Assembly (NCBI GenBank): GCA_963705405.1
Contig: CAVPJJ010000003.1
Coordinates: 96,760-160,759, forward strand
Direction of reading: 5' to 3'
From: an uncultured Gammaproteobacteria bacterium
Lineage (GTDB): Bacteria > Pseudomonadota > Gammaproteobacteria > Steroidobacterales > Steroidobacteraceae
DNA length: 64,000 bases
Of the stretch, positions 19,639-40,044 are shown piece by piece (positions within the stretch are counted from its first letter, which is position 1; every line of letters starts with the position of its first letter). The notes beneath the pieces are model-generated. The model was not told where the DNA came from and made no database searches. It worked only from the letters and a program-made list of their open reading frames with translations. A program made the position numbers and the translations under genes.

Positions 19639-20880
19639 GTGAAGCCCGCTACTCCGCGACAGCGCTTGACAGCTCCGACACTCAGGCTTGGAGCATTGCT
19701 GACCACGCTGGTCGCGCTCGGGCCGCTCTCCACCGACCTCTACATCCCGTCGCTGCCGACACTGATCGAAGTGTTTCGCACCGATGCGGCGCGCGTCCAG
19801 CTGACGCTGTCCGTATTCCTTGCGGGCTTTGCCGTCGCGCAGCTGGCCTATGGTGCGCTGTCTGATCGCGTCGGGCGACGACCGATCATGCTCGCGGGGC
19901 TCGCGATCTTCTTCCTGGCGTCGGTCGGCTGCGCTTTCGCCACCAGCATCAATCAGCTGATCGTCGCCCGTTTCGCGCAGGCGATCGGCGCCTGTGCCGG
20001 ACCGGTACTTGGGCGCGCGATCGTCCGCGACGTCTGGGGGCCAATCAAGGCGGCCCGTGCCCTGGCCTACCTGGGCGGCGCAATGGCGCTGGCGCCTCTG
20101 GTCGCTCCGGTCCTCGGCGGCGCGCTGACCGTCTGGTTTGGCTGGCAGTCCAACTTCGCGCTGCTGGCGTCGTTCTCCGGTGTGCAACTGGTGGTGGTCT
20201 GGCGTTGGCTGGGCGAGAGCAACGTGTATCCGGATGCGACGGCGACCCGCGTCGGCCGCATGCTGATGAATTTCCGGATCCTGCTGGCAGATCGAGGCTA
20301 TCTCGGCTGTCTTCTGGCGCTGGCGTGGTCGTACAGCGCGCTGTTCGCCTTCATTGCCGGGTCGTCCTTCGTGTTGATCGGGAGGTACGGGCTTTCGCCG
20401 GCCGTCTACGGCATGTGCTTCGGGTTTGTTGTCGCCGGCTACATCGCCGGTACGCAGCTTGCCGGCTGGCTCGTGCCCCGGCGCGGCCCCGACTGGTTGC
20501 TGCGGTCCGGCGCCTGGCTGGGGGCATTCGCCGGGGCGGCGATGCTTGGCCTCGATCTTGCCGGTGTCCGCCATCTCGCCGCAGTGCTGGCGCCGATGTT
20601 CGTCGTCACCGTGTCGATCGGGGTGGTGATGCCGAACGCCACCGCGCGGGCGCTGGCGCCGTACCCGAAGATGACTGGTGCCGCGTCGGCTCTGATGGGC
20701 TTCTCGCAGATGAGCGTAGCGGCTCTGATTGGCATCGTCGTTGGCCATGGCGTCGAGAGCAACGCAACGGTCATGCCGATGACGATCGCAGCGTGTTGCG
20801 CGCTGGTGCCTTGTAGCTATCTTGCGCTGGTTCGCCGCGGTGACTCACATGGCGGCACGGATGCGTATCTCATGCGCTGA
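19639..20880 (+). CDS. MFS transporter, Bcr/CflA subfamily.
   Basis: It has 12-TM hydrophobicity and the motif GALSDRVGRRPIML between TM2 and TM3. It is 413 aa. Confidence 0.85.
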   Translation: MKPATPRQRLTAPTLRLGALLTTLVALGPLSTDLYIPSLPTLIEVFRTDAARVQLTLSVFLAGFAVAQLAYGALSDRVGRRPIMLAGLAIFFLASVGCAFATSINQLIVARFAQAIGACAGPVLGRAIVRDVWGPIKAARALAYLGGAMALAPLVAPVLGGALTVWFGWQSNFALLASFSGVQLVVVWRWLGESNVYPDATATRVGRMLMNFRILLADRGYLGCLLALAWSYSALFAFIAGSSFVLIGRYGLSPAVYGMCFGFVVAGYIAGTQLAGWLVPRRGPDWLLRSGAWLGAFAGAAMLGLDLAGVRHLAAVLAPMFVVTVSIGVVMPNATARALAPYPKMTGAASALMGFSQMSVAALIGIVVGHGVESNATVMPMTIAACCALVPCSYLALVRRGDSHGGTDAYLMR

Positions 20881-21550
20881 CGGCTCCATGCACCGCGCCG
20901 GCGTCGGCCCGCCTGACGGTTGCCAGGTAAACCAGTGCCCGTGCGCAGGCGAACGAGTGACCCGACAGGTTTGCCTTGCGCGGCACAGATCCGAGATCCC
21001 GCGGCCGTCCGGGGGCACGCAGCCGCCACGGGCCGTCGCGTAGCACTTCTCCGAACTCGAGCGCATCGTCGGCCGTGACGGCGTAGACGCCGGGCAACGA
21101 CGCGGGCAACCAGCCGGGCCGGTCGGGCTGCTCCGACGCCACGAGTACGCAGCCCGACTCGATGACGGCAGCGCAGGCAGCGGCCAGCACCTCGTCCCCC
21201 GGGCCCGGAGGAACACCGAGGCTCAGGTTAACGAAGTCGCAGCCCTCGGCTGCGGCCCGCAGGATTCCCCTGGCGACGAGCGAGGGATAGGTGGCCTCTG
21301 CGACGCCGAACACCCGCACCGAAAATATCACCGCGTCGGGAAACGCCTCGCGGATGATTCCGGCCACGGCCGTCCCATGACCAACAGGGTCGGAGAAGTC
21401 CGCGTCCTCGCGAACCAGCCTGTCCGGTCCCAGGTACAGGCGGCAGCCCGTCACGCTTCCCCGCACGTGGGAATGCCATGGATTCACGCCGGTGTCGACG
21501 ATTCCGATGCGACGAGCCGACAGCAAATCCCGACCCAAGCGACGCTCCAT
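20870..21550 (-). CDS. qhpE: Small subtilisin-like (S8) serine protease, QhpE-like leader peptidase of the quinohemoprotein amine dehydrogenase gamma subunit.
   Basis: The catalytic triad context is IVDTGV (Asp), HGTAVAG (His) and SGHSFA (Ser). It is only 226 aa and is the last gene of the qhp operon. Confidence 0.7.
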   Translation of the reverse strand: MERRLGRDLLSARRIGIVDTGVNPWHSHVRGSVTGCRLYLGPDRLVREDADFSDPVGHGTAVAGIIREAFPDAVIFSVRVFGVAEATYPSLVARGILRAAAEGCDFVNLSLGVPPGPGDEVLAAACAAVIESGCVLVASEQPDRPGWLPASLPGVYAVTADDALEFGEVLRDGPWRLRAPGRPRDLGSVPRKANLSGHSFACARALVYLATVRRADAGAVHGAVSA

Positions 21551-21570
21551 TGAAGAATTCTGCGAAATGG

Positions 21571-23343
21571 TCAGTTGCCGCGGTCGATGCCGGGCGTCGC
21601 CGCGAAAGTCGTGACGCCGCGACTAAAATGATCCGGCATCAGCAGCGAGCCGAATTGCTCCGCAGCAACCGCAACAAAGCGGCCTGCATGCAGGAGCATG
21701 AGCCGGTCGAAGTCCGTGAGACCCACAGGCCGGTGGGAGATGACGAGCGCGGTGCAATCAGGAAATGCTTCCCATAGATGCTGTCGGATCCGGGCCTCGG
21801 TCTCCAGGTCGAGACCGGAGAAAGCCTCGTCGAGCACCAGGATCCGGGGCTTGCGCAAGAACAGGCGTGCAAGGCCCAGCCGCTGCCGCTGGCCGTCGGA
21901 GAGCGCGAGCCCACGGCCACCGACGACGGTGGCGTAACCGTCGGGCAGGTTATTGATGAAGGTATCGGCCTCGGCCAGCGCGGCGGCCCGATCGAGGTCG
22001 GCGCGGGTCGTTCCGGGATTGCCGTAACGAAGATTTTCTTCCACGGAGGCGTGCAGCAGGAACGGTTCGGCGCCCGCATACCCGATCAGATCCCGGTCAT
22101 CCACCGAACGCCTGCGGTGCGCTGGCCGGCCGTCGATGTGAACGGAGCCTTCGGTGGGCTGCCGCAGGCCGAAAAGCAGGTGTATCAGCGTGGACTTGCC
22201 TGCACCCGAAGCGCCAAACAGGCCTACGCGCTCGCCCCGATCGATATGGAGGTTCGCACCCCGGAATACCGGCGGCTTCCCCGGGTAGGCAAATGTCAGG
22301 TCGCGCAACACGATGGCGTCATTGTCGGCGGCAGTCATCGCAACATCGACAGCCGGTGCCGCAGCGCTGTCGTCTGGACCGAAGACCTCGACCACCCGGG
22401 CGAAGCTCACCCGCGCCTCCTGGAGATTTCGGACGAGACCGAGTAATCCCTGGGCCGGCGCGAAGAGGCGTCCCTGGTAGAGCACAAAGGCGACGAACGT
22501 GCCGAGGCTGATCGTACCGGCCTCGAGCAGCCTGCCACCGAGGAGGTAGATCCACGCCAGCGCAAGCGTGAGCAGCAGGCCCGGCGCGCCGGTCGACATG
22601 GAGTCGAGCACCTGGAAGCCAACAACCTCGCGGTTAAGCCGTTCGCTCGCGGCAGCGAGTCGTTGCTGCTCCTCGCCCTCGGTGCGGTGAAAGCGAATCG
22701 CGCGCAGTGCGGCGATGCGCTCCGACAGGAAGTGGGAAAGGTCGGCCACAGCCTCGCGCACGCTGCGGCTTCTTTCCTCGATGGAGCGGCGAAATGCGGT
22801 CGTAGCGAGCAGCGCGAGGAGCAGGCCGAGAAAACTCCACAGCGCCAGGGTCGGCGACAGGCTGAAGGTGATGACCGCCGCCACGGCCAGGAAAAGAACG
22901 TTCTGCAGTGCTCCGAGTACGCCGTCGACCAGCAGGGTCTGAATTCGCGGCAGGTCGGTGCCGAAGCGCGTGAGGAGATCCCCGTGGCGGATGGGCTCCA
23001 GCGTCGCGAGCGGCCCGTTCAGGCAGCGCTCAAAAAGCGACGATCGCAGCTCGCCCAACAGGTCCGCCGAAAGGCGCGCGTGGACGCGGCGTGACAGTGT
23101 CGCAAGCAGCAGGTCGAGGACTGCCAGGACCAGCAGTACCGCGGCGATCTTCGGGATCACGGTGAAGTCGCCGCGGCTTGCCACCGCGTCCACGAACGCC
23201 TTGCCCAGCAGCGGTGTAGAGAGCGACACGGCTGCGCCTGCGAGCCCCAGGGCGAGGATGGCGGCGAGGCTGCCCCGCTTGCCTGACAGATGGCGCGCGA
23301 ACCGCAGGAGGTCTTTCAACACGAGCCTGGTTCGCCGGCCCAT
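21571..23343 (-). CDS. qhpF: ABC exporter (fused permease-ATPase), QhpF-like. A GTG at 23322 is an alternative start.
   Basis: It has an N-terminal 6-TM domain, Walker A GASGAGKST, signature LSDGQRQR and Walker B ILVLDEAFSGLD. Its start overlaps the end of the upstream U32 gene. Confidence 0.8.
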   Translation of the reverse strand: MGRRTRLVLKDLLRFARHLSGKRGSLAAILALGLAGAAVSLSTPLLGKAFVDAVASRGDFTVIPKIAAVLLVLAVLDLLLATLSRRVHARLSADLLGELRSSLFERCLNGPLATLEPIRHGDLLTRFGTDLPRIQTLLVDGVLGALQNVLFLAVAAVITFSLSPTLALWSFLGLLLALLATTAFRRSIEERSRSVREAVADLSHFLSERIAALRAIRFHRTEGEEQQRLAAASERLNREVVGFQVLDSMSTGAPGLLLTLALAWIYLLGGRLLEAGTISLGTFVAFVLYQGRLFAPAQGLLGLVRNLQEARVSFARVVEVFGPDDSAAAPAVDVAMTAADNDAIVLRDLTFAYPGKPPVFRGANLHIDRGERVGLFGASGAGKSTLIHLLFGLRQPTEGSVHIDGRPAHRRRSVDDRDLIGYAGAEPFLLHASVEENLRYGNPGTTRADLDRAAALAEADTFINNLPDGYATVVGGRGLALSDGQRQRLGLARLFLRKPRILVLDEAFSGLDLETEARIRQHLWEAFPDCTALVISHRPVGLTDFDRLMLLHAGRFVAVAAEQFGSLLMPDHFSRGVTTFAATPGIDRGN

Positions 23344-24272
23344 ACGTCCGGGTAATAGCAGAGGTGGGCGTTCTCGCAGAGCTCGGGAGCTCCCCGCATG
23401 GACACCACGGACGCACGAATGTCATCGGGGCCGGCACCGCGCTCGGCGTGCTTCAGCACGACGGCGGCCAGCCGCACCGATGCGGTCTTGCGTGCGAGTG
23501 ACGCCTCGCGACCGACCACCTTCAGGCTCGCAACGCCGATGCGAGCCAGGCGGGGCAGGGCGCACAGACCGCAGGGGCCGAGCGTATAGCCCCGGCTCGT
23601 CTGGCAGCCGCAGTTGTTCAAGGTCCACTTCCAGAACTCGTAGCGCCTGTCGAGACGGCCGGATCTTGCCGCGAGGCGGTCGTCCATGCAGAAGGGGCCG
23701 AAGGCATGGGTGGTGGCGCAGATTCCTTCTTCGAAAACGCAGCCGTCGTTCAGCGCGAAAACCTCCCACTCGAGACCGGGAATCGCGGTTTCCTCGATCT
23801 CCCGCAAGGTCATGTGCCGGGGCAGGATCACACGCGACACGCCGAGGCTGCGGTAGAAGGCGGCGGCGCCGGGGTTGCGGCAAGTCGCGAGACTGGAGAC
23901 ATGCAGGCGTGGGCCGAGCCCTTGCTCGCACAGGGCCAGCAGGAGTTCCCATTCGGCGACGATGAGGGCGGCAACGCCGATCTCATCGAGAAGCAGCCTG
24001 CCGAACTCCACCAGGCGGGGCACGGCCCCCGCCGGATAGGAAGGCGAGTTGAGCGTCGCGTAGACCGGTCGTGGCTGCGCCAGGTCCACGATCCGGCGCA
24101 GGTCCTCGAGATCCGGAACGCCGGCGGACCTGGGGTTGCGGCGATGGACCCACGCTTGCCCGAAGGTTTCCTCCCAGCCGGGCGGGGTCAGGCCGCAATA
24201 GAACTCGTGGGCACCCTCGGCGAGGAGCGGCAGGACTTCCTCGGAGCTTCGCAGCGGCGCAAGGATCTTCAT
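23316..24272 (-). CDS. Peptidase-U32 family protein, UbiU-like (putative Fe-S, O2-independent hydroxylase component).
   Basis: MKILAPLRSSEEVLPLLAEGAHEFYCGL.., HVSSLATCRNPGAAAFYRSLGVSRVILPRHMTLREI, WEVFALNDGCVFEEGICA and ASLKVVGREAS parallel the conserved blocks of E. coli UbiU as I recall them. Several conserved Cys are present. An ATGA overlap links it to the upstream U32 gene. Confidence 0.7.
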   Translation of the reverse strand: MKILAPLRSSEEVLPLLAEGAHEFYCGLTPPGWEETFGQAWVHRRNPRSAGVPDLEDLRRIVDLAQPRPVYATLNSPSYPAGAVPRLVEFGRLLLDEIGVAALIVAEWELLLALCEQGLGPRLHVSSLATCRNPGAAAFYRSLGVSRVILPRHMTLREIEETAIPGLEWEVFALNDGCVFEEGICATTHAFGPFCMDDRLAARSGRLDRRYEFWKWTLNNCGCQTSRGYTLGPCGLCALPRLARIGVASLKVVGREASLARKTASVRLAAVVLKHAERGAGPDDIRASVVSMRGAPELCENAHLCYYPDVWAGEPGSC

Positions 24273-25111
24273 GGCGTGGCCGCCTCGTGAAGGACGACGC
24301 GGTCGGTATGAAGCAGCCACGCTTCGGCTGCCTCGGGCGGCAACTCATAGAAAGAGTGTGTTGCCGCCTCTCCACAGGGGCATCGGACAGTCATCGCGTT
24401 GGACCCGAATCGGGCCGGCCCGGCAAGGCCCGGGACAGCGGTCAGCAAGTGTCTTGGAAAAACCGCCACCCTCGGCGTAGAGGCGTGCCTTCAGCGGACA
24501 ACCGCGGCCCGAGGCGGCGAACGTGAAGGGCAGGTGAATGGCCCGGAGAAGTCCCACGCCCGTCTCGTCAGGTCCGTCACCGAGATAGCCGCCGTCGAGA
24601 TCCGCATCGCTTTCGAGCGCCGTGACGCCGAGGTCGGCCAGGAAGCCGCGCAGCCTCGCGTAGCGGGATGCTTCGTGGGTTGCATCGCCGACCGTTCGAT
24701 CGCGATAGGCCCGCGGGTCACGCAGTGACCGGTTCATCAGCCGGCCGGCGCGCCGAGGCAGCGAAGGGTAGAGATCGCGCAGGAGCCCAAGTATCCCCCA
24801 GTCATTGAACACAACCGCCGGTTCCTGGCCGCTCGCCGTGAGTCTGGCCAGCAGCCGACCCACGGTGCGCAGCCCTTCGGGCGTCACGATCGGCGTGAGC
24901 AGCGTGGGTTCGAGCTCAAGGTCGCGCGCCAGCGAGACAAAACGCCTCGGCCTCTTGAAAATCGGAGAGGCGGTCCTCGCAGAATTCCGTGCCGAAGTAC
25001 AGCGCCACGGTCGGAGCCGTCCGGTAGCAGACTGCGCCACGCGGCCGGGCACGCGTCCCGCAGATCGCGGGGCGGTTCGGCGGGGCTCGTCAGGCGAAGT
25101 CCGTATTCCAT
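24269..25111 (-). pseudogene. Peptidase-U32 family protein, UbiV-like. As written, there are three frame breaks near 25010, 24940 and 24352.
   Basis: The ATG at 25111 has a GGAG ribosome-binding site about 10 nt upstream (MEYGLRLTSPAEPPRDL..). It continues in a second frame (VALYFGTEFCEDRLSDFQEAEAF), then in the frame of ORF 24345..25052 (VSLARDLELEPTLLTPIV..AIHLPFTFAASGRGC..CPGPC..PLWRGGNTLF). It ends in ORF 24269..24469 (YELPPEAAEAWLLHTDRVVLHEAATP), whose stop overlaps the next ATG. Two of the breaks sit at A/T homopolymers (AAAA 24939-24942, AAA 24351-24353). Confidence 0.6.
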
Positions 25112-25146: not shown

Positions 25147-26151
25147 TCAGAAGCTGACCCGGCGGATATCCATGCCGTCAGAGGCCATCTGCAGCACCTT
25201 CAGCGCCTTCAGCGTCTTCGAGTCGTAGACAGTCACTGTGGATCCGCCACCTCCGGCATAGATTTTCTTGCCGTCGCCCGACACGTTGACGGCGTAGCAG
25301 GTGCCCTCCGCGATGGGCATCGACTCCAGGTACGTCTTTTCGACGAGGTCGATGACCGTGAGCTCGTCCATGACCGCGTAGGCCAGCTTCCTGTCGGGCG
25401 ACAACACCACCGAGTACGCCATCACCGGGTCGCCCTTCAGCGGGATTTCGCTGATTTCGCCGGTCTTCTGGTCGACCAGCATGAGTCCCATGAACTCGGG
25501 CGTGTAGTAGTTCATGCTCGCGATGCCGCCGTTGTCGAACGCGTAATCCCAGAACGGCAGGATGTTCATCTTCCTGTCGAACATCGGCACGGTCTCGGCG
25601 ATCTTCAGGTCGCGCCCGGTCGTATCGATCTTGTAGAGGTCCTGCGCGAAAGCGTAGAGCACCGTGCCGCCCTTGACACTGACGAGGTGTGTCACGCCCC
25701 AGGGCACCTCGACACTGCGCAGGAACCTGCCGGTCTCGAGCTCGAACTGGGCGACCACGGGCCCACCGATGATGACCTCTCCCCCGGCCGTCCTGCGGGA
25801 CATGAAGCCGCCATAGGCAGTCTTGCCATCGGGATCGAGCGCGAAGCCGAACATCACCCGGTCCCAGCCGTCATTGCTCAAATCGATTGTGGCCACGACC
25901 CGGTTCTGCGTCAGATCCACGGTGTGCACGAGATGACGGTTGGTGGCGACATACAGGAACTTCCGGTCGGCGCTGAGAGCTACCTCGCGGCTGGCACCGG
26001 TGATGGGAATGTCGGCCACGATGGCGTCGGTGTCGCCGTCGATCACCTGGATGATTTCATAGCCCAGATAGTAGAACCGCTCCCCGGCCGCGGCGCCCCC
26101 GACGTAGAGGATTGCGGCGAGGCCCACGAATAGCAGTGGCTGCCATCGCAT
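25147..26151 (-). CDS. qhpB: Quinohemoprotein amine dehydrogenase beta subunit (7-bladed beta-propeller).
   Basis: It has the signal peptide MRWQPLLFVGLAAILYVGGAAAG, is 334 aa, and shows a repetitive beta-strand pattern. It is positioned directly after qhpC with an AGGAGG ribosome-binding site. Confidence 0.75.
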   Translation of the reverse strand: MRWQPLLFVGLAAILYVGGAAAGERFYYLGYEIIQVIDGDTDAIVADIPITGASREVALSADRKFLYVATNRHLVHTVDLTQNRVVATIDLSNDGWDRVMFGFALDPDGKTAYGGFMSRRTAGGEVIIGGPVVAQFELETGRFLRSVEVPWGVTHLVSVKGGTVLYAFAQDLYKIDTTGRDLKIAETVPMFDRKMNILPFWDYAFDNGGIASMNYYTPEFMGLMLVDQKTGEISEIPLKGDPVMAYSVVLSPDRKLAYAVMDELTVIDLVEKTYLESMPIAEGTCYAVNVSGDGKKIYAGGGGSTVTVYDSKTLKALKVLQMASDGMDIRRVSF

Positions 26152-26160: not shown

Positions 26161-26487
26161 CTATTCGTACTTCAGGTTGCGCCAGTCGCGCGCGATGTTC
26201 GGGCAGGCCACGTCGAAATCCGAATGATTCGTCAGGCCGTCCGGCACCTGGGCGGGCCACCAGCAGTCGCCGGCGCAGCCGTGGAAATCGCGGGCCGACG
26301 ACTGGCAATTGCCGATCGGATAGGTGGGCCGCGGGTTCGTTTCCCAGCCGGTGTCGAAGATCGTGGTGCAGCCCTGCGGCATCGCGGGAGGACCGCCGAG
26401 CGCCTCGGCCGTCTGCTCCTCGCCCTCTGCCAGACGCTCGATGGCGCGCGCCTTTTCGTTCAACGCGTCGATGATCTTCTTCTTCAT
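26161..26487 (-). CDS. qhpC: Quinohemoprotein amine dehydrogenase gamma subunit precursor, which carries the CTQ cofactor and thioether crosslinks.
   Basis: It is 108 aa with a charged leader, then the core GCTTIFDTGWE..CQSSARD..CAGDCWWPAQVPD. Spacings Cys40-Glu49, Cys61-Asp67 and Cys75-Asp83 match the known Cys-to-Asp/Glu thioether pairs. The Cys71/Trp77 pair matches the CTQ pair in the CxxxCWW motif. Confidence 0.9.
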   Translation of the reverse strand: MKKKIIDALNEKARAIERLAEGEEQTAEALGGPPAMPQGCTTIFDTGWETNPRPTYPIGNCQSSARDFHGCAGDCWWPAQVPDGLTNHSDFDVACPNIARDWRNLKYE

Positions 26488-26510: not shown

Positions 26511-27926
26511 TCAGCCGTCAGTCCGTGTCTTCAGGAAGGTGAACACGGGGTTGTCGGGATCGCGGCAAAGGTTTGAATAAGTGCGAACGCCGATTTCCAG
26601 CCACCGCCGGATGAAATCGCACGATCCGCCGGGCGGCAGGCCAAGTTTGGTTTCCCGAAGGTGGTTCTCGTAATGGCAGCCCCCGGCACAGAGGCTGCGC
26701 GCCCAGCAAGCCCTGCACGCCTGCGCGCGAGTTGCCGCCTGGTCCGCGAGGCTCGCCCGGATCTTCGCGTGATCAACGCCAGCGTCCAGACTACCGACCT
26801 GGAACCCATCTTCTCCCGCGAGGCGATGGCACAGGAAGAACCTGCCGTCGGCATCCGCGGCCAGGTACCCGAGACCAGCGCCGCAGGGCGAGTCCTTCAC
26901 GCGGCCGATGTGGAGTCTGGCGAGCAGGTCGAGGAGGTTGGAAAAGGGCAGGACGCGACCCTCGGCGGCTTCTTGCAGAAATCGCCCGGCCAGCAGTGAA
27001 AAGCCGGCGAACAAGGCCTCGTCCTGCTCGGCAGTGGGCAGCAGCCCGGTCGTCACCGGGCTCACCGGTGCGATGCCGACCTCGAGGAATCCCAGGCCAA
27101 GCACGTGTCCGAAGACCTCGGGAATCCGCAGCCATTGCTCGGGCGTCAGGGTCACCCGGGCCGCGGGCGGCCTCAACGCGTGTGCGCGCATCAGCGCAAG
27201 CCCCTCCACGACATCGACGTAACTGCCGCGCCGCGTTCGGCCCGCGTAGCGGCGGTTGGCGTCGTGGATGTCGGGTGGGCCATCGATGCTGATGGTGATC
27301 CCGATACGGTGCTCACGCAGGAAAACGAGCAACGTCGGTGTGAACCGGGTTCCGTTGGTCGTGAGCGAGACGACCAGCTGTTTGCCCGCTTTTCTTGTCG
27401 CGTCCTCCGCTTCCAGAACCGCGGCCCGCAGGGCCGGCAGGTTCAGCAACGGTTCACCGCCGAAGAGGACGAGGGTGACCTGCTGGCGGTCGCCGGACGC
27501 TTCGACCAGGTGTTGCGCCGCTCGCCGCGCCAGTTCGGGGCGCATCAATCGCGATTTGCCGCCATACGAGCCGCCGCCCGCGTAGCAGTAGGTACAGCGC
27601 AGGTTGCACGCCTGGGCCACCTCGAGTACGAGCGTCCCAAGGGGAATATCGGCAGGGTCGATCGGTGCCGGCGCCGGCCGATGTTGCGATGTGGCCGGGA
27701 CCAGCACCAAGGCATCCCGTAACGCCTCGAGGACCTCCCGGTCCGGAGCGGGCGCCTCGCGCAAATCAAGAGTTTCCCGCTCCCGCCACCGCGCCAGGAC
27801 ATCCCGGGTCGACGCATCGAGCGCAAACAGGCTGGCGTGATCCGTGCCGAACAGAAGGGCCTTGCCGCCCGGCTCGGTGGCGGCCTCGAAGATCCGGTGA
27901 CCCGCCCAGGCGTAAATCCCGCTCAT
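26511..27926 (-). CDS. qhpD: Radical SAM/SPASM peptide maturase QhpD, which forms the thioether bonds in QhpC.
   Basis: It has the CNLRCTYC radical SAM motif and the C-terminal SPASM-type Cys cluster CRACWARSLCAGGCHYEN. An ATGA overlap links it to qhpA. It lies directly upstream of qhpC. Confidence 0.9.
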   Translation of the reverse strand: MSGIYAWAGHRIFEAATEPGGKALLFGTDHASLFALDASTRDVLARWRERETLDLREAPAPDREVLEALRDALVLVPATSQHRPAPAPIDPADIPLGTLVLEVAQACNLRCTYCYAGGGSYGGKSRLMRPELARRAAQHLVEASGDRQQVTLVLFGGEPLLNLPALRAAVLEAEDATRKAGKQLVVSLTTNGTRFTPTLLVFLREHRIGITISIDGPPDIHDANRRYAGRTRRGSYVDVVEGLALMRAHALRPPAARVTLTPEQWLRIPEVFGHVLGLGFLEVGIAPVSPVTTGLLPTAEQDEALFAGFSLLAGRFLQEAAEGRVLPFSNLLDLLARLHIGRVKDSPCGAGLGYLAADADGRFFLCHRLAGEDGFQVGSLDAGVDHAKIRASLADQAATRAQACRACWARSLCAGGCHYENHLRETKLGLPPGGSCDFIRRWLEIGVRTYSNLCRDPDNPVFTFLKTRTDG

Positions 27927-31897: not shown

Positions 31898-31999
31898 GGA
31901 TGCACTGCCTGTACGTGGTGTTTATGAGATAAGTCAGCGGTCGAATGTTGACATTAGGCAGACCCGGTCAAACAGGGTCTTGGCGCAATGTGCAGCGCG

Positions 32000-33076: not shown

Positions 33077-33196
33077 TTGCAGCTTGGTACAAGCCGGCTG
33101 CGCTTAACGCCAAGACGGGGCGGCTCGGGTTGACTTCAATGACCATGAAGGTGGGCTTTGCCGGCTGATCCTGGTCGGCCGGACTGAGGGGGGGAA

Positions 33197-35425
33197 ATGT
33201 CACAGAAACATCGCTCCAGCGTCCTGCTGGTCAGCACGGGTTTAGTCCTGAGCAGTAACGCCCTGGCACAGGTGACACTCGAGAGCGTAACCGTCACGGC
33301 GCAGAAGCGTGAGGAAAGCCTTCAGGATGTCGGCATATCGGTGGCCGCCATTTCCGCTGCGGAGCTTGGGCAACTGGGCGCCAGCAGGTCGGTCGACATC
33401 GCCCAGCAGGTGCCGGCCATGCAGTACTCGACCTGGACCCCCGCATTCACCACCTTCAGCCTGCGCGGCGTCTCGCAGAACAACTTTCAGGACAACCTCG
33501 AGGCGCCGGTTGCGGTGTACATGGATGGCGCGTACGTCGCCAGCATGAACGCGATCAATGGTCAGATGTTTGACCTCGAGCGCATCGAGGTGCTGCGCGG
33601 CCCCCAGGGGACCCTGTTCGGCCGCAATGCCACGGGCGGCCTGATCCACTTCCTGAGCCACCGGCCCGTCGAAACCGAAACGAACGGCTATATCGAGGCC
33701 GGCGCGGCCGACTTCGGGACCTACAGCTTCGAAGGCGCGATCGGCGGCGCATTCTCGGACCGCGTGCGTGGCCGGATCGCCGGGAGATGGGAGAAATCGG
33801 ATGGCTACCTCAAGGCTGGCACCGCGTTCGGCATTCGGGCAACCGGCCAGACCTCACAGGGTGCCGACGGCTTCGCCCTGCGCGGCATGCTACAGATCGA
33901 TGCGAGCGACGCGGTCAAGGTCGACCTGAGTGCGGCGTACTCCAAGGACGACCATGTTCCCACCGGCCAGTACGTCGTCACCCTGACTGGATTCGACGAA
34001 AACACCGGGCTCGGCGCCTTTACGAACGCATTAGACCCGGCAGACCCCGGCGCCGGCCCGATGGACTTCCCGCGCACGCCGATCACGGGCGACGTGCACC
34101 GTCACTGGTCGAATGAGGATACCTACTTCGACCGCGAGACGACCTCCTTGACCGCGCAGGTCACGGCGCGGCTTGGCGGAGCCGAGTTTGTTTCGATATC
34201 GAACTGGCTGACGCTCGACAAGTTCTACATCGAGGACGCGGCCGGTGGCTTCGGCTTTTTCCCCTACAACACCGTCGCCGCCTTCGACCAGTGGTCGCAG
34301 GAGTTCCGCCTCTCGGGGTCGGCAGAGCGGTCGCGCTGGCAAGTGGGTGCGTATTACCTCGACATGAAGTGGGACACGTTCCAGAGCGTCGAGGGCGCCC
34401 TGATTCTCGGCGGCACCAGCGACGCGCAGAAGATGACCACCCTTGGCCTGGTGAATTCCAAGAACTGGTCGGTGTTTGGCCAGGCCGAGTTCGACCTCGC
34501 GGACCGCTGGACGCTGATCGGAGGGCTGCGCTGGTCGCAGGATGACAAGAACATCGCGATGCGGCGCATTTATGAGGACGCGCTCAACAGCATTCCGCCG
34601 ACCGAGATCTTCAACATCAGCGATGTCGCGATACCTGGCGTCGACAAGATCAATTACGGGGACTATGCGGCGCGCCTGCAGCTCAATTTCAAGCCGGGCA
34701 AGGACACGCTTCTCTATGCCGCCTACAACCGCGGCATCAAGGGCGGCAACTGGTCACTTGACCCGCTGGGCGGCGTCGCGGACGAGAATCTGAAGCACAA
34801 GGAAGAGGTTCTGCAGGCTCTCGAGCTTGGCTGGAAGACCGAGTTCTGGAACGGCGCCGCGAGGTTAAACACCTCGGTGTTCTACTACGACTATGAGGAC
34901 TACCAAGCCTTCTCGCTCGTGGGCCTGACGCCGCAGGTGACGAACTCAAATGCCGATGCCCAGGGTGGCGAGATCGAGCTCACATTGTCGCCCACGCAAG
35001 GCCTCAACCTGATGTTCGGAGCCGCGTTCATCGACTCCACGGTCGATGCCGTCCCCGACGTGTTCGGCGGCACGGTGAAGGCGGAGTTCCCGACCGCACC
35101 GGGCATGAGCCTGAACCTGCTAGCGAGATATGAGTGGCCAGCCTTTGGCGGCAACCTCGCCGTGCAGTTTGACGGCAAGTGGAACGACGACCAGTTCCTC
35201 GAGGGTACGAACTCCGAGGTGTCGTTCGAGCCCGCCTACTCGGTGTGGAATGCGAGTCTCTCGTACGCGGCCAGTGATGGTGGATTCGGCATGTCAGTCT
35301 ACGCGCGCAACCTGTTCGACGAGGAATATCGCTTGTACGACCTCGACCTCGGGCTGATCGGCTTCATCGAACAGGCTTTCGGCCCGCCACGGCAGTTGGG
35401 CGTGACGGTTTCCTACCGATTCTAG
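33197..35425 (+). CDS. TonB-dependent outer-membrane receptor.
   Basis: It has a signal peptide, the plug-domain sequence LESVTVTAQKREESLQDVGISV..IEVLRGPQGTLFGRNATGG, and a long beta-barrel with a terminal aromatic residue (..VTVSYRF). It is 742 aa and intact. Confidence 0.85.
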   Translation: MSQKHRSSVLLVSTGLVLSSNALAQVTLESVTVTAQKREESLQDVGISVAAISAAELGQLGASRSVDIAQQVPAMQYSTWTPAFTTFSLRGVSQNNFQDNLEAPVAVYMDGAYVASMNAINGQMFDLERIEVLRGPQGTLFGRNATGGLIHFLSHRPVETETNGYIEAGAADFGTYSFEGAIGGAFSDRVRGRIAGRWEKSDGYLKAGTAFGIRATGQTSQGADGFALRGMLQIDASDAVKVDLSAAYSKDDHVPTGQYVVTLTGFDENTGLGAFTNALDPADPGAGPMDFPRTPITGDVHRHWSNEDTYFDRETTSLTAQVTARLGGAEFVSISNWLTLDKFYIEDAAGGFGFFPYNTVAAFDQWSQEFRLSGSAERSRWQVGAYYLDMKWDTFQSVEGALILGGTSDAQKMTTLGLVNSKNWSVFGQAEFDLADRWTLIGGLRWSQDDKNIAMRRIYEDALNSIPPTEIFNISDVAIPGVDKINYGDYAARLQLNFKPGKDTLLYAAYNRGIKGGNWSLDPLGGVADENLKHKEEVLQALELGWKTEFWNGAARLNTSVFYYDYEDYQAFSLVGLTPQVTNSNADAQGGEIELTLSPTQGLNLMFGAAFIDSTVDAVPDVFGGTVKAEFPTAPGMSLNLLARYEWPAFGGNLAVQFDGKWNDDQFLEGTNSEVSFEPAYSVWNASLSYAASDGGFGMSVYARNLFDEEYRLYDLDLGLIGFIEQAFGPPRQLGVTVSYRF

Positions 35426-35427
35426 AC

Positions 35428-36714
35428 ATGCAGGCGGCGCTAGCGGAACTCGAGCCGATCGAACGGGCCTCGACCTCGGAGCTTCGCGCCCTGCAACTCG
35501 AACGCCTGCAATGGTCGCTGCGGCATGCGTATGAGAACGTTGTCCACTATCGGCAGGCCTTCGACGCGGCGGGTGTGCATCCCGGCGACCTGCGGTCTCT
35601 CGAGGATCTTGCCCGCTATCCGTTCCTGACCAAGCAGGATTTTCGCGTCAACTACCCGTTCGGCCTGTTTGCAGTACCGCGTGAGCGCGTCGTGCGGATT
35701 CATGCCTCGTCCGGCACGACCGGCAAGCCGACGGTCGTCGGCTACACGGCGCGGGATATCGACATCTGGACAGGGCTCGTCGCCCGCTCGATCCGGGCCG
35801 CCGGGGGGCGGCCGGGCGACATGGTGCACGTGGCTTATGGTTACGGGCTGTTCACTGGCGGTCTCGGCGCACACTACGGCGCCGAGCGCCTCGGCTGCAC
35901 CGTGATCCCGATGTCCGGCGGTGCCACAGAGCGACAGGTTTCGCTGATCCGGGACTTCGGCCCGCGGATCATCATGGTCACTCCCTCGTACATGCTGGCG
36001 ATTGCCGACGAGTTCGAAAGGCAGGGGCTCGACCCACGCCGGTGCTCGCTCGAGATCGGCATCTTCGGTGCCGAACCGTGGACCGAAGGCATGCGCGCGG
36101 TGATCGAGGAGAGGCTCGACCTTTCCGCCGTGGACATCTACGGCCTGTCCGAGGTGATGGGACCGGGTGTCGCGCAGGAGTGCGCCGAGTCCAAGGACGG
36201 CCCCTGTGTCTGGGAGGATCACTTCTACCCGGAGATCATCGATCCTGTGAACGGGGTGGTGCTGCCAGACGGCGAGGAGGGCGAGCTCGTGTTTACGTCC
36301 CTCACCAAGGAAGCCCTGCCGGTAATCCGCTACCGCACCCGGGATCTCACGCGGTTGCTGCCCCCGACGGCGCGCTCAATGCGCCGCATTGCCAAGATCA
36401 CGGGCCGCTCGGACGACATGCTGATCATCCGCGGCGTCAACGTCTTTCCGACCCAGATCGAAGAAGCGATATTGCGCTGCGCCGGTCTTGCGCCCCATTT
36501 TTATCTTGAGGTGACCCGCGACAAGGCGCTGGATGACCTGATGGTCGTTGTTGAGGGCCAGGCTGGCGCCGATGCCGCCAGCGCGGCGCGTGGACTCGCC
36601 CAGTGCGTCAAGACACTGGTCGGTATCACTGTGCGGGTCAATGTGCTTCCGCCGGGCGGCGTCGAGCGATCCCAGGGCAAGGCGAAGCGCATAATCGACC
36701 ACCGCAAGCTATGA
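35428..36714 (+). CDS. paaK: Phenylacetate-CoA ligase.
   Basis: It contains FLTKQDFRVNYPFGLFAVP, the SSGTTGKPT AMP-binding motif, and YGLSEVMGPGVAQEC. It is 428 aa and starts 2 nt after the receptor gene stop. Confidence 0.9.
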   Translation: MQAALAELEPIERASTSELRALQLERLQWSLRHAYENVVHYRQAFDAAGVHPGDLRSLEDLARYPFLTKQDFRVNYPFGLFAVPRERVVRIHASSGTTGKPTVVGYTARDIDIWTGLVARSIRAAGGRPGDMVHVAYGYGLFTGGLGAHYGAERLGCTVIPMSGGATERQVSLIRDFGPRIIMVTPSYMLAIADEFERQGLDPRRCSLEIGIFGAEPWTEGMRAVIEERLDLSAVDIYGLSEVMGPGVAQECAESKDGPCVWEDHFYPEIIDPVNGVVLPDGEEGELVFTSLTKEALPVIRYRTRDLTRLLPPTARSMRRIAKITGRSDDMLIIRGVNVFPTQIEEAILRCAGLAPHFYLEVTRDKALDDLMVVVEGQAGADAASAARGLAQCVKTLVGITVRVNVLPPGGVERSQGKAKRIIDHRKL

Positions 36715-37919
36715 AGGCGATCGCCATGCCGAGTAATCTTCATTCGCGACCCGCTCCGTCGGGTTATTTCCGGCGGCACGAAGGACTTGCTGGTCTGGCG
36801 GTCGCCTTCACGCTCCTGATGACGGGCGGCGCGGCCGAAGCCCAGCTGCAACCCGAACCGCTGGTGCGACAGGACTTGCCGGCAACCGGCAGCGCACATT
36901 GGGTGTGGGTCAACGACATCGTTTTTCATCACATGGCGGACGGCAAGGCGTTCCTGTTCGATGGCGACAGCGGGAACATGCTCGGCATGCTGAGCACTGG
37001 TTTTGGCTTCGGCGGCGTGGTGGTCCCCGGCAATGGTTCCGTAATCGCTTCGCCAGAGACTTATTTCTCGCGCGGGACTCGTGGCACGCGCACTGACGTC
37101 GTAACGCTTTATGATTCGCGAACGCTCGACCCGATCGAGGAGATCGTGATTCCGGCCAAGCGCGCAAGCACCATGCCGATGCGTGCATCTGCGGCGCTTA
37201 CAGACGACGACCGCTTCCTGCTGATCTACAATTTCACGCCCGCACAGTCCGTCACCGTGGTCGACCTGCGCGCGCGCAAGTTTGTCGGCGAGGTGGGCAC
37301 GCCGGGCTGCGCGCTGGTCTATCCGACCGGCCCACGAAGTTTTTTCTCGCTTTGCGGCGACGGTACGGCGCTCGCTATCCAGCTGGACGATGCCGGCCTG
37401 GCCATCGCCATGGAACGCACGCCGAGCTTGTTCGATGCCGAGCAGGATCCGGTGACCGAGAAAGCGGTGCGTGACGGCGAAACCTGGCTGTTTGCTTCGT
37501 TCGCCGGCGACATCGTCCCCGTTGAGACGGTCGAAGGCAGGACGCGCGCCGGGGTGCGTTGGTCGCTGACGACCGCGGAGGAGCGCAAGGAAGGCTGGAA
37601 GCCTGGCGGCTTGCAGCACCTGGCTCTGCATGTGGCGAGCCGGCGCCTCTACAGCCTGATGCACAAAGGAGGGCCGGATTCGCACAAGGACCCCGGCTCG
37701 GAGATCTGGGTGTACGATCTGGCGAGCCGTGAGCGAAAGCAGCGAATCATGCTGGAGGCGCCATTGACGTCCATCGCCGTGACCGGTGACGATGCTCCGT
37801 TGTTGTTCGGCCTCTTCATTGCGGCACCGGAGCTGCGCGTCTTCGACGCCAGGACGGGCGCCGCGCTGCGGACGACGGGCGAGGTCGGCTTTTCGCCGAC
37901 GATCCTCGTCACCTATTAA
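36711..37919 (+). CDS. mauB: TTQ-dependent (methylamine/aromatic) amine dehydrogenase heavy chain (beta-propeller).
   Basis: The ATG at 36711 overlaps the paaK stop (ATGA). It has a signal sequence and the MauB-like sequence WVWVNDIVFHHMADGKAFLFDGDSGNMLGML..ETYFSRGTRGTRTDVVTLYD. Confidence 0.85.
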   Translation: MKAIAMPSNLHSRPAPSGYFRRHEGLAGLAVAFTLLMTGGAAEAQLQPEPLVRQDLPATGSAHWVWVNDIVFHHMADGKAFLFDGDSGNMLGMLSTGFGFGGVVVPGNGSVIASPETYFSRGTRGTRTDVVTLYDSRTLDPIEEIVIPAKRASTMPMRASAALTDDDRFLLIYNFTPAQSVTVVDLRARKFVGEVGTPGCALVYPTGPRSFFSLCGDGTALAIQLDDAGLAIAMERTPSLFDAEQDPVTEKAVRDGETWLFASFAGDIVPVETVEGRTRAGVRWSLTTAEERKEGWKPGGLQHLALHVASRRLYSLMHKGGPDSHKDPGSEIWVYDLASRERKQRIMLEAPLTSIAVTGDDAPLLFGLFIAAPELRVFDARTGAALRTTGEVGFSPTILVTY

Positions 37920-37934
37920 CCGGGAGGTCAATCC

Positions 37935-38468
37935 GTGACGCTCGATCCTGCCGTCTCCTGGCTCCTCGGGCTGGGGCTCGCACTGTTATTCGGCATCGCC
38001 GCAGGTCACAAGCTCGCGGACCGCGAACGGTTCCTGGGGGTGCTCGGGAACTACAGGCTGGTGCCGGAACGGCTGGTGCCATTGGCGGGAGCGGTCATCG
38101 TAGCCGCGGAAGTCGTGGCGGTCCTGCTGCTCGCGCTGCCCCCGGTTCGCACACTCGGCGCGTGTCTTTCGGTGGCGCTGCTCGCAGCCTATGCACTTGC
38201 GATCGCAGTCAATCTGCTGCGGGGGCGGACACGGATCGATTGTGGCTGCTTCGGCTTCGGTCGCCACGACTACATCGCGTGGACTATGGTGATCCGCAAT
38301 CTGGCCCTGGTCGCGCTGGCGCTGGCATTGCTTCTGCCGGAATCGCAGCGCGATCTGGTGGTACTCGATGGGCTGACGGTCGGTGCGAGCCTCGTGGCCA
38401 GCGCCGTGCTGGCGGCCACCTTCGTGCGCCTTGGCGCGCTGCCCGCAGAGCGCGGGGGTGCGCCATGA
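37935..38468 (+). CDS. mauE: MauE-type membrane protein (methylamine utilisation, DoxX-like).
   Basis: It has four TM helices and the conserved RIDCGCFG motif. It is positioned between the heavy-chain gene and mauD. Confidence 0.8.
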   Translation: MTLDPAVSWLLGLGLALLFGIAAGHKLADRERFLGVLGNYRLVPERLVPLAGAVIVAAEVVAVLLLALPPVRTLGACLSVALLAAYALAIAVNLLRGRTRIDCGCFGFGRHDYIAWTMVIRNLALVALALALLLPESQRDLVVLDGLTVGASLVASAVLAATFVRLGALPAERGGAP

Positions 38469-39076
38469 GTGCGGCTGGATGGATTGCCATAAGCGCGCTG
38501 TGGGCGGTCGTGATCGGTCTTGCAATCATGGTGTTCGCGCTGGCACGGCAAATCGGCGTGCTCCACGAGAGGCTCCAGCCGGTCGGCGCGCTGACGCTTG
38601 CCAAGGGCCTGAAAGCCGGGGATCCGGCACCACAGCTTGACGTCGCCACGATGGCCGGGGATACGCTCCACATCGGCGCCCCCGATCCACACGGCAAAGA
38701 CACGCTGGTGATGTTCGTTTCGCCCAGCTGTCCGGTATGCAAGTCGCTGCTGCCAGCACTGCGCTCGATTCATCGGCGTGAGAAGCCGAGGGTCGAGGTC
38801 ATTCTGGCGAGCGATGGACTGCCAGCCGAGCACGGCAGTTTCATTGCAGCCGAGTCATTGCAGGAATTCCCATACGTGCTTTCGGAGCGACTGGGGCTGG
38901 CGTTCGGCGCGGGCCGCCTGCCGCACGCGGTGCTGCTGGATGGTCGTGGGATCGTACGCGCCAGCGGGCTCGTCAATTCGCGCGAACACCTGGACAGCCT
39001 GTTCGAAGCGCGCAAACGTGGCGTGGCGTCGCTGCAGGAATTCCTCGAGCGGAGCGGGCGCCGCCACGTCGCCTGA
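38465..39076 (+). CDS. mauD: MauD-type membrane-anchored thioredoxin-like protein.
   Basis: The ATG at 38465 overlaps the mauE stop (ATGA). It has an N-terminal TM helix and the SPSCPVCK CxxC motif. Confidence 0.8.
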   Translation: MSAAGWIAISALWAVVIGLAIMVFALARQIGVLHERLQPVGALTLAKGLKAGDPAPQLDVATMAGDTLHIGAPDPHGKDTLVMFVSPSCPVCKSLLPALRSIHRREKPRVEVILASDGLPAEHGSFIAAESLQEFPYVLSERLGLAFGAGRLPHAVLLDGRGIVRASGLVNSREHLDSLFEARKRGVASLQEFLERSGRRHVA

Positions 39077-39103
39077 TGGCCATGGAATTAATGAGGGTGT
39101 CCC

Positions 39104-39607
39104 ATGCCGGATTATGACGACATGATCGAACGCATGACGCGGCGACTCGCGAAGACCGTGGCCCGGCGGAGCGTGCTGCGCACGCTCGGCAGCATCATGA
39201 TCGGCGCCGCCGCACTGCCGCTATTGCCGGTGGCGCGCGGGCAGTCCGCCGAGAAGGAATCCGGCGACCCAGCGTCCTGCGACTACTGGCGCTACTGCGC
39301 CATCGATGGTTTCCTGTGTGCTTGCTGCGGTGGCACGGTTAGCGCGTGTCCGCCCGGCACGGAGCCAGCGCCGATCACCTGGATCGGCACCTGCCGCAAC
39401 GCCGCAGACGGACTCGACTACATCGTTTCGTACAACGATTGCTGTGGCAAGAGTTCCTGCGGGCGCTGCCTGTGCAACCGCAACGAGGGCGACCGGCCGC
39501 TTTACATGGCGGGCAGGTCCAACGACTACAACTGGTGCGTGGGGAGCCAGGCCAGCCTGCCGTACCACTGCACCGTCTCGCGCGTCGTCGGCGTCGTCAC
39601 GAAGTGA
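39104..39607 (+). CDS. mauA: TTQ-dependent amine dehydrogenase light chain precursor.
   Basis: It has the Tat-type signal RRSVLRTLG and the Cys-rich core CDYWRYCAIDGFLCACCGG. Trp93 (ITWIGTC, 39380..39382) and Trp144 (YNWCVG, 39533..39535) are spaced 51 residues apart, like the two TTQ-forming Trp of known light chains. Confidence 0.9.
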   Translation: MPDYDDMIERMTRRLAKTVARRSVLRTLGSIMIGAAALPLLPVARGQSAEKESGDPASCDYWRYCAIDGFLCACCGGTVSACPPGTEPAPITWIGTCRNAADGLDYIVSYNDCCGKSSCGRCLCNRNEGDRPLYMAGRSNDYNWCVGSQASLPYHCTVSRVVGVVTK

Positions 39608-40044
39608 TGTGGCACCTGGTGGGCGCGAAGTCACTGCTCTGGTTGGTTCCGTTGTGCGGCCTGGCCGGATCCCCGGGAGCTGTCGCCGACGACAATCGCG
39701 CGCGGCAAAACTACATGATTCACTGCATGGGTTGCCACGGCGCGCAGGGCGAGGGATTCAAGGATCAAGTGCCGAGCATGCGCGGCGCACTCGTCCGGCT
39801 TGCAACCTTGCCGGACGGGCGCTCATTTTTGCTGCGTGTGCCGGGTGTTTCCATGTCCAGTCTCGATGCGGAACTGACGGCCGAAGTGCTCAACTGGACG
39901 CTGCGCGAATTCAGCGCGGCCGAGGCCCTGCGCTCGATTCCTCCATTCACAGCCGATGAGGTGACCGAGGCGCGATCCCGACCCTTGCTCGAGGTCTCGT
40001 CGACGCGCGCCCAGGTACTGCGCGGCGAGGGGCTCCACCAGTAG
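39607..40044 (+). CDS. Monohaem c-type cytochrome, a probable electron acceptor of the amine dehydrogenase.
   Basis: The ATG at 39607 overlaps the mauA stop by 1 nt. It has a signal peptide and a single CMGCH haem motif. It is about 145 aa. Confidence 0.7.
   Translation: MWHLVGAKSLLWLVPLCGLAGSPGAVADDNRARQNYMIHCMGCHGAQGEGFKDQVPSMRGALVRLATLPDGRSFLLRVPGVSMSSLDAELTAEVLNWTLREFSAAEALRSIPPFTADEVTEARSRPLLEVSSTRAQVLRGEGLHQ

Follow-up and report, generated by a model that had tools for sequence, protein, structure and literature searches.

The window analysed here, 64,000 nucleotides (nt) of contig CAVPJJ010000003.1 from an uncultured gammaproteobacterium of the Steroidobacteraceae (assembly GCA_963705405.1), encodes two amine dehydrogenases with different protein-derived quinone cofactors: a quinohemoprotein amine dehydrogenase (QHNDH), the product of a qhp gene cluster, with cysteine tryptophylquinone (CTQ), and an enzyme of the tryptophan tryptophylquinone (TTQ) type. 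Our principal finding is that the qhp cluster belongs to a deep second lineage of such clusters that lacks QhpG, the O2-dependent flavoprotein of CTQ synthesis, and has in its place two adjacent genes for U32-type proteins, U32b and U32a, that resemble the ubiquinone hydroxylation proteins UbiV and UbiU. By analogy with UbiU-UbiV, we see about an even chance that this pair is a peptidyl-tryptophan dihydroxylase that builds CTQ without O2 and probably takes the oxygen from prephenate. The region as a whole is, on balance, best read as an amine-catabolic island in which two modules of independent distribution have one divergent control region in common.

Published qhp operons consist of qhpABCDEFGR, all genes of which are needed; QhpG is an essential flavin adenine dinucleotide (FAD) monooxygenase that inserts both oxygen atoms, taken from O2, into the CTQ tryptophan (PMC7876137). 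The initial annotation described the cluster in the window as a complete CTQ system. Our gene map, built from Pfam and NCBIfam scans, places QhpA, QhpB, QhpC, QhpD, QhpE and QhpF on the minus strand, but QhpG and the regulator QhpR are missing, and the U32 pair and a metallo-beta-lactamase-fold (MBL) protein had gone unmentioned. The dihaem alpha subunit QhpA (27923-29509; TIGR03908, 285 bits against a cut-off of 274) has a signal peptide, two CXXCH motifs (CSGCH and CVRCH) and the Pfam domains Dehyd-heme_bind, Qn_am_d_aII and Qn_am_d_aIV, and matches 1jmx_A and 1jju_A in the PDB. QhpC, the gamma-subunit precursor carrying CTQ (26161-26487; NF037958, 120 bits, cut-off 50), keeps all three cysteines, their Asp/Glu partners and the C-x3-C-W-W cofactor motif in alignments to 1jju_C and 1jmx_G. 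The radical-SAM/SPASM thioether maturase QhpD (26511-27926; TIGR03906, 328 bits, cut-off 453), the beta (propeller) subunit QhpB (25147-26151; TIGR03907, 109 bits, cut-off 223) and a QhpE-like subtilisin protease, predicted to cleave the gamma-subunit leader (20870-21550; Peptidase_S8; NF049966, 123 bits, cut-off 165), each find their best match in these families and keep their positions, but score below the equivalog cut-offs. A QhpF-like ABC exporter with fused permease and ATPase (ABC_membrane and ABC_tran) lies at 21571-23343. Between qhpB and qhpF lie the genes for U32b (24269-25111), with a UbiV-like cysteine pattern, and its partner U32a (23316-24275; PF01136, 88 bits), a UbiU-like candidate Fe-S hydroxylase subunit.

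The cluster thus resembles qhpADCBEFGR of Paracoccus denitrificans and Pseudomonas putida (PDB 1JJU and 1JMX; PMC7876137) in its dihaem alpha and propeller beta subunits, in a gamma subunit with three Cys-Asp/Glu thioether positions and a Cys-Trp CTQ motif, and in its radical-SAM QhpD, subtilisin-like QhpE and ABC exporter QhpF. It differs in having no QhpG and no QhpR and in the insertion of U32b/U32a between qhpB and qhpF. The window's proteins are 25-44% identical to their canonical counterparts, and its QhpD falls in a separate deep clade. Against the QhpR model, whose cut-off is 250, the sole regulator encoded in the region reaches 34 bits.

The absence of QhpG extends well beyond the window. 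The QhpG model NF049967 (cut-off 240) reaches at best 29 bits across G000, the genome that contains the window, and at most 60 bits in all five of the other genomes with a U32-type cluster that were searched; tblastn detected no QhpG within 10 kb of 28 U32-type qhp loci. QhpG scored above the cut-off in each of the 15 canonical qhp genomes examined. A further, unpublished genome (G052) gave just a QhpG-like match below the cut-off, and none of our conclusions depends on it. One FAD-dependent aromatic-ring monooxygenase is encoded nearby (17667-19348, plus strand; PRK08132/MhpA-like; frameshifted as assembled, with NF006002 matching two pieces at 209 and 471 bits). We considered and dismissed it as a hidden QhpG: its family is PRK08132, the QhpG model (cut-off 240) gives it 28 bits, no other U32-type qhp locus has it, and it is present in a same-genus genome (G035) that lacks the qhp block at this site.

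A scan of species-representative genomes yielded about 30 U32-type qhp loci, and the order qhpA-D-C-B-U32b-U32a-F-E is fixed in every one of them; the position of qhpE is conserved in about 28 loci, and those of qhpF and qhpB are likewise conserved. The hosts include metagenome-assembled genomes (MAGs) labelled Casimicrobiaceae, Rubrivivax, Burkholderiales and Rhodocyclaceae, as well as Desulfuromonadales, Geopsychrobacter and Thermodesulfobacteriota, among which are lineages of strict anaerobes. Within the genus of the window's host, a protein search of 36 other genomes did not find U32a. In a tree of QhpD, all U32-only clusters lie on one side of a very long branch with 100/100 support, and U32-type qhp is, on this evidence, a deep second qhp lineage with a fixed gene order. 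Two loci of one genus in the same family (L073 in G221 and L074 in G299) hold a canonical cluster with QhpG and, directly after qhpF and qhpE, a U32b/U32a pair that is 30-40% identical to the window's. These two clusters nest among the canonical ones, which indicates that the U32 pair has joined qhp clusters more than once. Three states therefore exist, QhpG only, both, and U32 only, in parallel to UbiIHF and UbiUV. In the same family, TonB-dependent receptor genes adjoin the canonical qhp clusters in seven of seven genomes examined (L072-L078).

U32a is related to Escherichia coli UbiU (hhalign probability 98.4%, E 7e-15) and scores 50 bits against the UbiU model, for which the cut-off is 440. 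It has more than 500 metagenome homologs, the best 120 of them at 72-97% identity, and no relative in the PDB by sequence or profile search. Bona fide UbiU and UbiV are encoded separately in G000, at 60% and 42% identity to those of E. coli. U32b aligns in register with the U32a profile (hhalign E 1.9e-4, probability 47%), and its AlphaFold model (mean predicted local distance difference test score, pLDDT, 75.6) has as its top Foldseek match the U32 peptidase 5d88 (E 2.8e-5; template-modelling score, TM, 0.48-0.54), to our knowledge the only solved U32 protein. The stop codon of U32b overlaps the start of U32a in all loci, and neither protein has a signal peptide. Across 31 sequences, U32a invariably has cysteines at the positions of UbiU C169, C176 and C232, and a further invariant cysteine nine residues after the second stands in place of UbiU C193. 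Four invariant cysteines of U32b align with UbiV C39, C180 (one column off), C193 and C197. In UbiU and UbiV these are the mapped [4Fe-4S] ligands of the heterodimer (PMC6747719). Both U32 partners hence keep the four-cysteine ligand pattern, and both are predicted to bind a cluster.

When the UbiU-UbiV heterodimer hydroxylates an aromatic ring, the oxygen comes from prephenate and no O2 is needed (PMC10990095). The pair in the qhp cluster resembles UbiU-UbiV (PMC6747719, PMC10990095) in consisting of two adjacent, translationally coupled U32-type genes, in the homology of U32a to UbiU, in cysteine patterns that match the mapped 4Fe-4S ligands, and in taking the place of a flavin monooxygenase that uses O2 for hydroxylation of an aromatic ring. 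It differs in its presumed substrate, a peptidyl tryptophan in a crosslinked 8-kDa protein rather than a prenylated phenol, in the lack of a UbiT-like gene in the qhp cluster, and in the extra invariant cysteines of U32a (CX6CX9C...CXC...CX2C). That the pair may replace QhpG is suggested by the fixed gene order, the lack of QhpG, the homology to UbiU, the Fe-S cysteines and the intact CTQ residues of QhpC. The cytoplasmic Fe-S pair would most likely insert two oxygens into the gamma-subunit tryptophan without O2, after which the gamma subunit would be cleaved by QhpE and exported by QhpF.

Several observations weigh against this proposal. U32b has no Pfam match, and its profile shows no similarity detectable by hhalign to the single E. 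coli UbiV sequence. Direct in vitro hydroxylase activity has been shown for no U32 protein (PMC10990095). The genome of the window (2.64 Mb in 11 contigs) is estimated to be 53% complete, so that the lack of QhpG, or of MauG below, in that genome alone is weak evidence; the argument from absence is carried instead by complete relatives. It is also possible, though in our view unlikely, that the pair does not hydroxylate the CTQ tryptophan but processes peptides, acts as a chaperone or modifies some other substrate. In that case a different enzyme, the haem chemistry of QhpA, or O2 by way of an unlinked monooxygenase would be the source of the quinone oxygens. The family was first named as peptidases, U32b is very divergent, no hydroxylase assay in vitro is available for the family (PMC10990095), and the gene for the FAD monooxygenase lies 1.5 kb from qhpE in the window, all of which would suit such a reading. 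However, that monooxygenase gene occurs in no other U32-type qhp locus and is part of the TTQ backbone, and the role of leader peptidase is already filled by QhpE. QhpG and U32 are, moreover, complementary over 15 canonical clusters, two of which hold both, and about 28 U32-only clusters; the Fe-S ligand cysteines are invariant; and the clade extends to strict-anaerobe lineages. The described routes to tryptophylquinones all use O2 or H2O2, namely QhpG, LodB and GoxB for CTQ and MauG for TTQ (PMC7876137, PMC11951088). Of the twelve U32 subfamilies, the majority still lack a known function (PMC10990095). Our literature searches found no paper linking U32 with tryptophylquinone, CTQ or qhp, and neither the QhpG paper (PMC7876137) nor the prephenate paper (PMC10990095) mentions such a link.

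The second module lies on the plus strand. It comprises the heavy (propeller) subunit of a TTQ amine dehydrogenase (36711-37919; PF06433, 179 bits), a MauE-like membrane protein (37935-38468; PF07291, 101 bits), a MauD-like thiol-disulfide oxidoreductase (38498-39076, start codon uncertain; TIGR02661, 190.5 bits against a cut-off of 188.6), the light subunit with a twin-arginine-like leader (39104-39607; PF02975, 170 bits) and a small periplasmic monohaem c-type cytochrome of 144 amino acids (aa) (39610-40044), which has a signal peptide, a single CMGCH motif and a weak match to Cytochrom_C (20.3 bits, cut-off 21.3). Both subunits find their best match of known structure in aromatic amine dehydrogenase (AADH): the light chain scores 157 bits against 2agl_D and 150 and 123 bits against two methylamine dehydrogenases (MADHs), and the heavy chain 176 bits against 2h3x_A and 161 against MADH. 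The MADH equivalog cut-offs are missed (TIGR02658, 192 against 454; TIGR02659, 156 against 197), and both tryptophans of TTQ are conserved in the alignment to 2agl_D (ITWIGTC and NDYNWCV). By these comparisons the enzyme is AADH-like.

We compared the neighbourhoods, 10 kb around each, of the best 80 of more than 560 related TTQ loci (L079-L158). The order heavy chain-E-D-light chain is common, with MauD in 63 and MauE in 43 of the 80, and 77 have, behind the light-chain gene, one for a homologous small cytochrome c. The aau cluster of Alcaligenes faecalis, according to an account by Chistoserdov in 2001, reportedly runs heavy chain-E-D-light chain and then a small monohaem cytochrome c. Its AADH (PDB 2AGL and 2H3X) supplies the best-scoring solved relatives of both subunits, and the window shares with it the heavy-E-D-light-cytochrome c series and a cluster with no gene for mauG, mauF or amicyanin, although no search was aimed at cupredoxins. 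The two differ in that the genes here stand in one operon with a TonB-dependent receptor and phenylacetate-CoA ligase. The same-genus genome G035 encodes two TTQ light chains, which share 88% and 58% identity with that of the window (L159, L162, L169).

TTQ formation in MADH needs MauG and H2O2 (PMC11951088). No gene of the CCP/MauG family was found in G000, in G035, which is 98% complete, in the groundwater MAG G341, or in Pseudomonas sp. BN411, which carries a related TTQ cluster. As a weaker corollary of our analysis, the TTQ enzyme in such genomes would have to be matured by a route as yet undescribed, because their hosts have no MauG that we could find. Homologs of the FAD monooxygenase occur in 11 of the 80 TTQ loci, mostly beside MBL (among them L128, L156, L137, L096, L139 and L079), and in none of the 30 U32-type qhp loci. 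This enzyme may be a catabolic ring hydroxylase, or may have a role in TTQ maturation in genomes without MauG.

As the initial annotation stated, the qhp cluster lies on the minus strand and the TTQ cluster on the plus strand, with all named genes at or near the positions it gave, and between them are a FeaR-like AraC-family regulator (about 32126-33076, plus strand; AraC_binding_2 and HTH_18), a TonB-dependent outer-membrane receptor with plug and beta-barrel domains (33197-35425, plus strand) and the phenylacetate-CoA ligase PaaK (35428-36714, plus strand). PaaK covers its model over the full length above the equivalog cut-off (TIGR02155, 692 against 646 bits) and is the sole PaaK-family gene in G000. 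On the other side of the control region lie, on the minus strand, an NAD(P)-dependent aldehyde dehydrogenase (ALDH; 30479-31897; Aldedh, 325 bits) and the SoxH-like MBL protein (29506-30463; Lactamase_B, with weak matches to TIGR04558 and TIGR04559). We propose that the periplasmic TTQ enzyme would oxidise an arylethylamine of the phenylethylamine or tyramine type to the arylacetaldehyde and pass its electrons to the co-encoded cytochrome c, that ALDH would yield the arylacetate, and that PaaK would convert it to the CoA thioester. A route from amine through aldehyde and arylacetate to acyl-CoA had been proposed for both dehydrogenases. It has comparative support for the TTQ module, as the 80 related loci include ALDH in 23, PaaK (64-90% identity) in 11, a FeaR-like AraC regulator in nine, MBL in seven and a TonB-dependent receptor in 39. 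The qhp side has no such support: ALDH, MBL, PaaK, the regulator and the receptor travel with TTQ loci and not with U32-type qhp.

The assumption of a phenylethylamine-type substrate has likewise gained ground for the TTQ module, with PaaK above its equivalog cut-off and both chains scoring best against the A. faecalis AADH, and aromatic-amine use is the best reading of this module. Some evidence points the other way. The TTQ chains are only slightly nearer AADH than MADH (157 against 150 bits for the light chain). The top NCBIfam match of ALDH, on a truncated piece, is aminobutyraldehyde dehydrogenase (284 bits) and not the phenylacetaldehyde dehydrogenase StyD (256 bits). The regulator scores 128 bits against the FeaR model NF007243, below the cut-off of 199, and the operator pattern of E. 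coli FeaR, which we take to be TGNCA-N8-AAA, is absent from both promoter regions. The proposed route resembles the E. coli FeaR-TynA-FeaB system that feeds PaaK and the paa pathway in joining periplasmic amine oxidation to a cytoplasmic ALDH and a phenylacetate-CoA ligase under an AraC-type activator of the FeaR subfamily. It differs in that O2-independent quinoprotein dehydrogenases replace the copper amine oxidase, as well as in the regulator and operator features just described.

The cluster ends with the cytochrome c gene, which is followed after 36 nt by a convergent operon of the iaa type on the opposite strand. This operon encodes a CoA-transferase, a xanthine dehydrogenase (XDH)-family enzyme, a B12 mutase, an acyl-CoA dehydrogenase (ACAD), a thiolase and its own AMP-binding CoA ligase (49734-51219, minus strand), the last split into two overlapping open reading frames (ORFs) by a probable assembly frameshift. 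Given its proximity, and since the A. faecalis AADH accepts tryptamine, the TTQ module might serve tryptamine and deliver indole-3-acetate to this anaerobic operon, with "PaaK" acting as an indoleacetate-CoA ligase. We regard this as quite unlikely. PaaK exceeds the equivalog cut-off for phenylacetate-CoA ligase and recurs with TTQ clusters in loci where no iaa genes were seen, and about 18 kb that include the iaa-type operon have no DNA-level match in L079, the closest TTQ locus. PaaK was rejected as the missing indoleacetate-CoA ligase of the operon, which has its own AMP-binding ligase; for the same reason, tryptamine feeding into the operon is possible but not required. The stretch without a counterpart in L079 spans 40379-58339, and L079 runs from about 40379 straight into sequence matching 58339-58937. 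An NnrS homolog (76% protein identity) follows the cytochrome c gene in L079, and NnrS-like ends may flank an insertion or duplication.

The two modules meet at a divergent control region (31898-32125), which separates the regulator gene from the ALDH-qhp operon and carries the palindrome CTTGTACAAG (32000-32009). A near-palindromic near-copy, CTTGGTACAAG, occupies 33083-33093 and precedes the receptor gene by 113 nt; neither sequence occurs a second time in the window. In G341 the same palindrome core, with a GCAC flank, is found some 120 nt ahead of a TonB-dependent receptor gene (L166:3228), and the core is also found near a TonB-dependent receptor gene in L097 (L097:831). The two sites are a weak lead for a common operator. 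The intergenic region between ALDH and the regulator is rich in insertions and deletions relative to L079, as expected for non-coding DNA. Since the minus-strand genes from ALDH to qhpE are separated by gaps of 0-35 nt or overlap, they look like a single transcription unit, and the ALDH-MBL-qhp block probably forms one operon of roughly 11 kb; among the public runs listed as containing the stretch, none is of RNA. The occurrence of TonB-dependent receptors near both canonical qhp and TTQ clusters unexpectedly ties active transport across the outer membrane to periplasmic amine dehydrogenases.

The initial annotation saw in the two neighbouring systems a possible division of labour by substrate range or oxygen regime. 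A division by oxygen regime gains indirect support only at the level of cofactor maturation, from the putative O2-independent hydroxylase pair that the CTQ set has where QhpG would stand. As a functional unit, the two systems are not conserved: none of the 80 TTQ loci has a qhp gene, and none of about 30 U32-type qhp loci has a TTQ gene, within 10 kb. Nor do the ALDH, MBL, AraC regulator, PaaK and receptor of the island recur with the U32-type qhp loci, where only an unrelated ALDH (39% identity) was seen. The closest locus, L079 of G035 (light chain 87% identical), aligns with positions 18431-20898, 29510-33230 and 35358-40379 of the window and has the order FAD-MFS, MBL-ALDH, AraC-PaaK-TTQ-cytochrome c. 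It lacks both the receptor and the 8.6-kb qhp block (qhpA-D-C-B-U32b-U32a-F-E), which in the window follows immediately after ALDH-MBL. On the left, the block is bordered by a Bcr/CflA-family transporter gene of the major facilitator superfamily (MFS; 19639-20880, plus strand; TIGR00710, 289 bits); in L079 the MFS gene is 25 bp from the MBL gene. G035 has a canonical qhp cluster with QhpG elsewhere in the genome. In G341 (locus L166), ALDH (93% identity), MBL, qhpADCB and U32 are contiguous, and the PaaK-TTQ cluster lies on other contigs, not within 9 kb. The adjacency of the two systems is real and recurs in a second sample, yet it amounts to a mosaic specific to one lineage.

This lack of conservation weighs against our reading of the region, because any functional coupling may be accidental. 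The qhp-U32 block could be a mobile cassette that landed, or survived, beside the TTQ island; the two enzymes would then have unrelated substrates and regulation, with the QHNDH acting on aliphatic amines such as butylamine and the sharing of ALDH and regulator having no functional meaning. We consider this possible, if somewhat unlikely. Both the missing adjacency at the other loci and the distance of the TTQ cluster from ALDH-MBL-qhp in G341 would be explained by it, as would the absence of the block at precisely this site in G035, with clean borders; characterised QHNDHs are, in addition, induced by butylamine (PMC7876137). On the other hand, qhpA starts 4 nt inside the MBL stop codon, directly behind ALDH and on the same strand, in G000, G341 and the activated-sludge contigs, which argues for co-transcription, and the window holds no separate qhp regulator. 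Because qhpA in these three sources always begins within the MBL stop, behind the ALDH of the island, it is plausible that ALDH and the divergent promoter region are shared by both modules. We retain the reading of two independently distributed modules with a shared control region: a TTQ island with the FeaR-like regulator, receptor, PaaK, AADH-like dehydrogenase and cytochrome c on one side and ALDH and MBL on the other, and a CTQ block of the second qhp lineage appended to the latter.

As deposited, ALDH spans four reading frames, MBL two and U32b four. Compared with the closest relatives, the three genes contain seven single-base insertions: three in U32b (at about 24350, 24936 and 25015), one in MBL (about 30338) and three in ALDH (about 30625, 30676 and 30855). 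Taken at face value, these would mean that the locus is decaying, that ALDH, MBL and U32b are true pseudogenes and that the aldehyde step and CTQ maturation are both non-working. We regard this as very improbable. Each inserted base is missing from contigs of other metagenome runs, of which an activated-sludge run (X2) covers all seven sites and a sediment run (X3) six. An Illumina-type run of the same study (X1, with Nextera adaptor ends), which is otherwise 99-100% identical, covers two of the three U32b sites (24936 and 25012), again without the inserted bases. ALDH (about 472 aa) and MBL (about 318 aa) are each one intact ORF in L079 of G035 and L166 of G341, and U32b is intact at 274-283 aa in about 25 relatives. 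Similar breaks occur in unrelated genes, the FAD monooxygenase (17667-19348) and the ligase of the iaa-type operon. An assembly with as few as 11 contigs yet an estimated completeness of 53% is typical of an indel-rich long-read consensus. Hence, the seven frameshifts are very probably errors of the assembly consensus and not signs of pseudogenes. No chimera was found at the junctions that could be checked. ALDH-MBL-qhpA is contiguous in G341; a contig of X1 bridges the AraC and receptor genes; and in X2 one contig runs from U32b through qhpA to MBL and a second from MBL through ALDH and AraC to the start of the receptor gene, with an overlap of about 25 bases within MBL.

Catalysis by amine dehydrogenases, in contrast to that by amine oxidases, does not depend on O2, and anaerobes would therefore be expected to favour these enzymes. 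The gene set of the host includes narG, and the operons around the amine locus are of the anaerobic aromatic type. Together with the separate UbiU and UbiV genes, this indicates that the host respires nitrate and needs O2-independent enzymes and cofactor synthesis. From its predicted genes, the host is a nitrate-respiring, UbiUV-carrying, betaproteobacterium-like MAG; the G+C content of the window is 66%. At 11088-15830, an IorAB-like 2-oxoacid:ferredoxin oxidoreductase (with thiamine pyrophosphate (TPP) and POR domains) is encoded beside an ADP-forming acyl-CoA synthetase, and this pair fits anaerobic metabolism of arylpyruvate and arylacetate in the same neighbourhood.

In summary, we provide evidence that the side-by-side arrangement of the two amine dehydrogenases is a mosaic that is local and specific to one lineage. 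With more than 560 loci, AADH-like enzymes that have a cytochrome c of their own are widespread, and their maturation in genomes where no MauG was detected poses a second problem. The most valuable content of the region is the replacement of QhpG by U32 proteins. If correct, this would be the first case in which a protein-derived quinone cofactor of any kind is made without oxygen, and it would give the U32 family its first protein substrate. The range of the prephenate-dependent U32 hydroxylases, a group recognised only recently, would then reach beyond lipids and RNA to proteins. It would also be clear how nitrate respirers and strict anaerobes can make an active QHNDH. With Fe-S U32 proteins occupying the slot of QhpG in a conserved qhp lineage, the question of how this cofactor can be made under anoxic conditions would have a concrete and testable answer.

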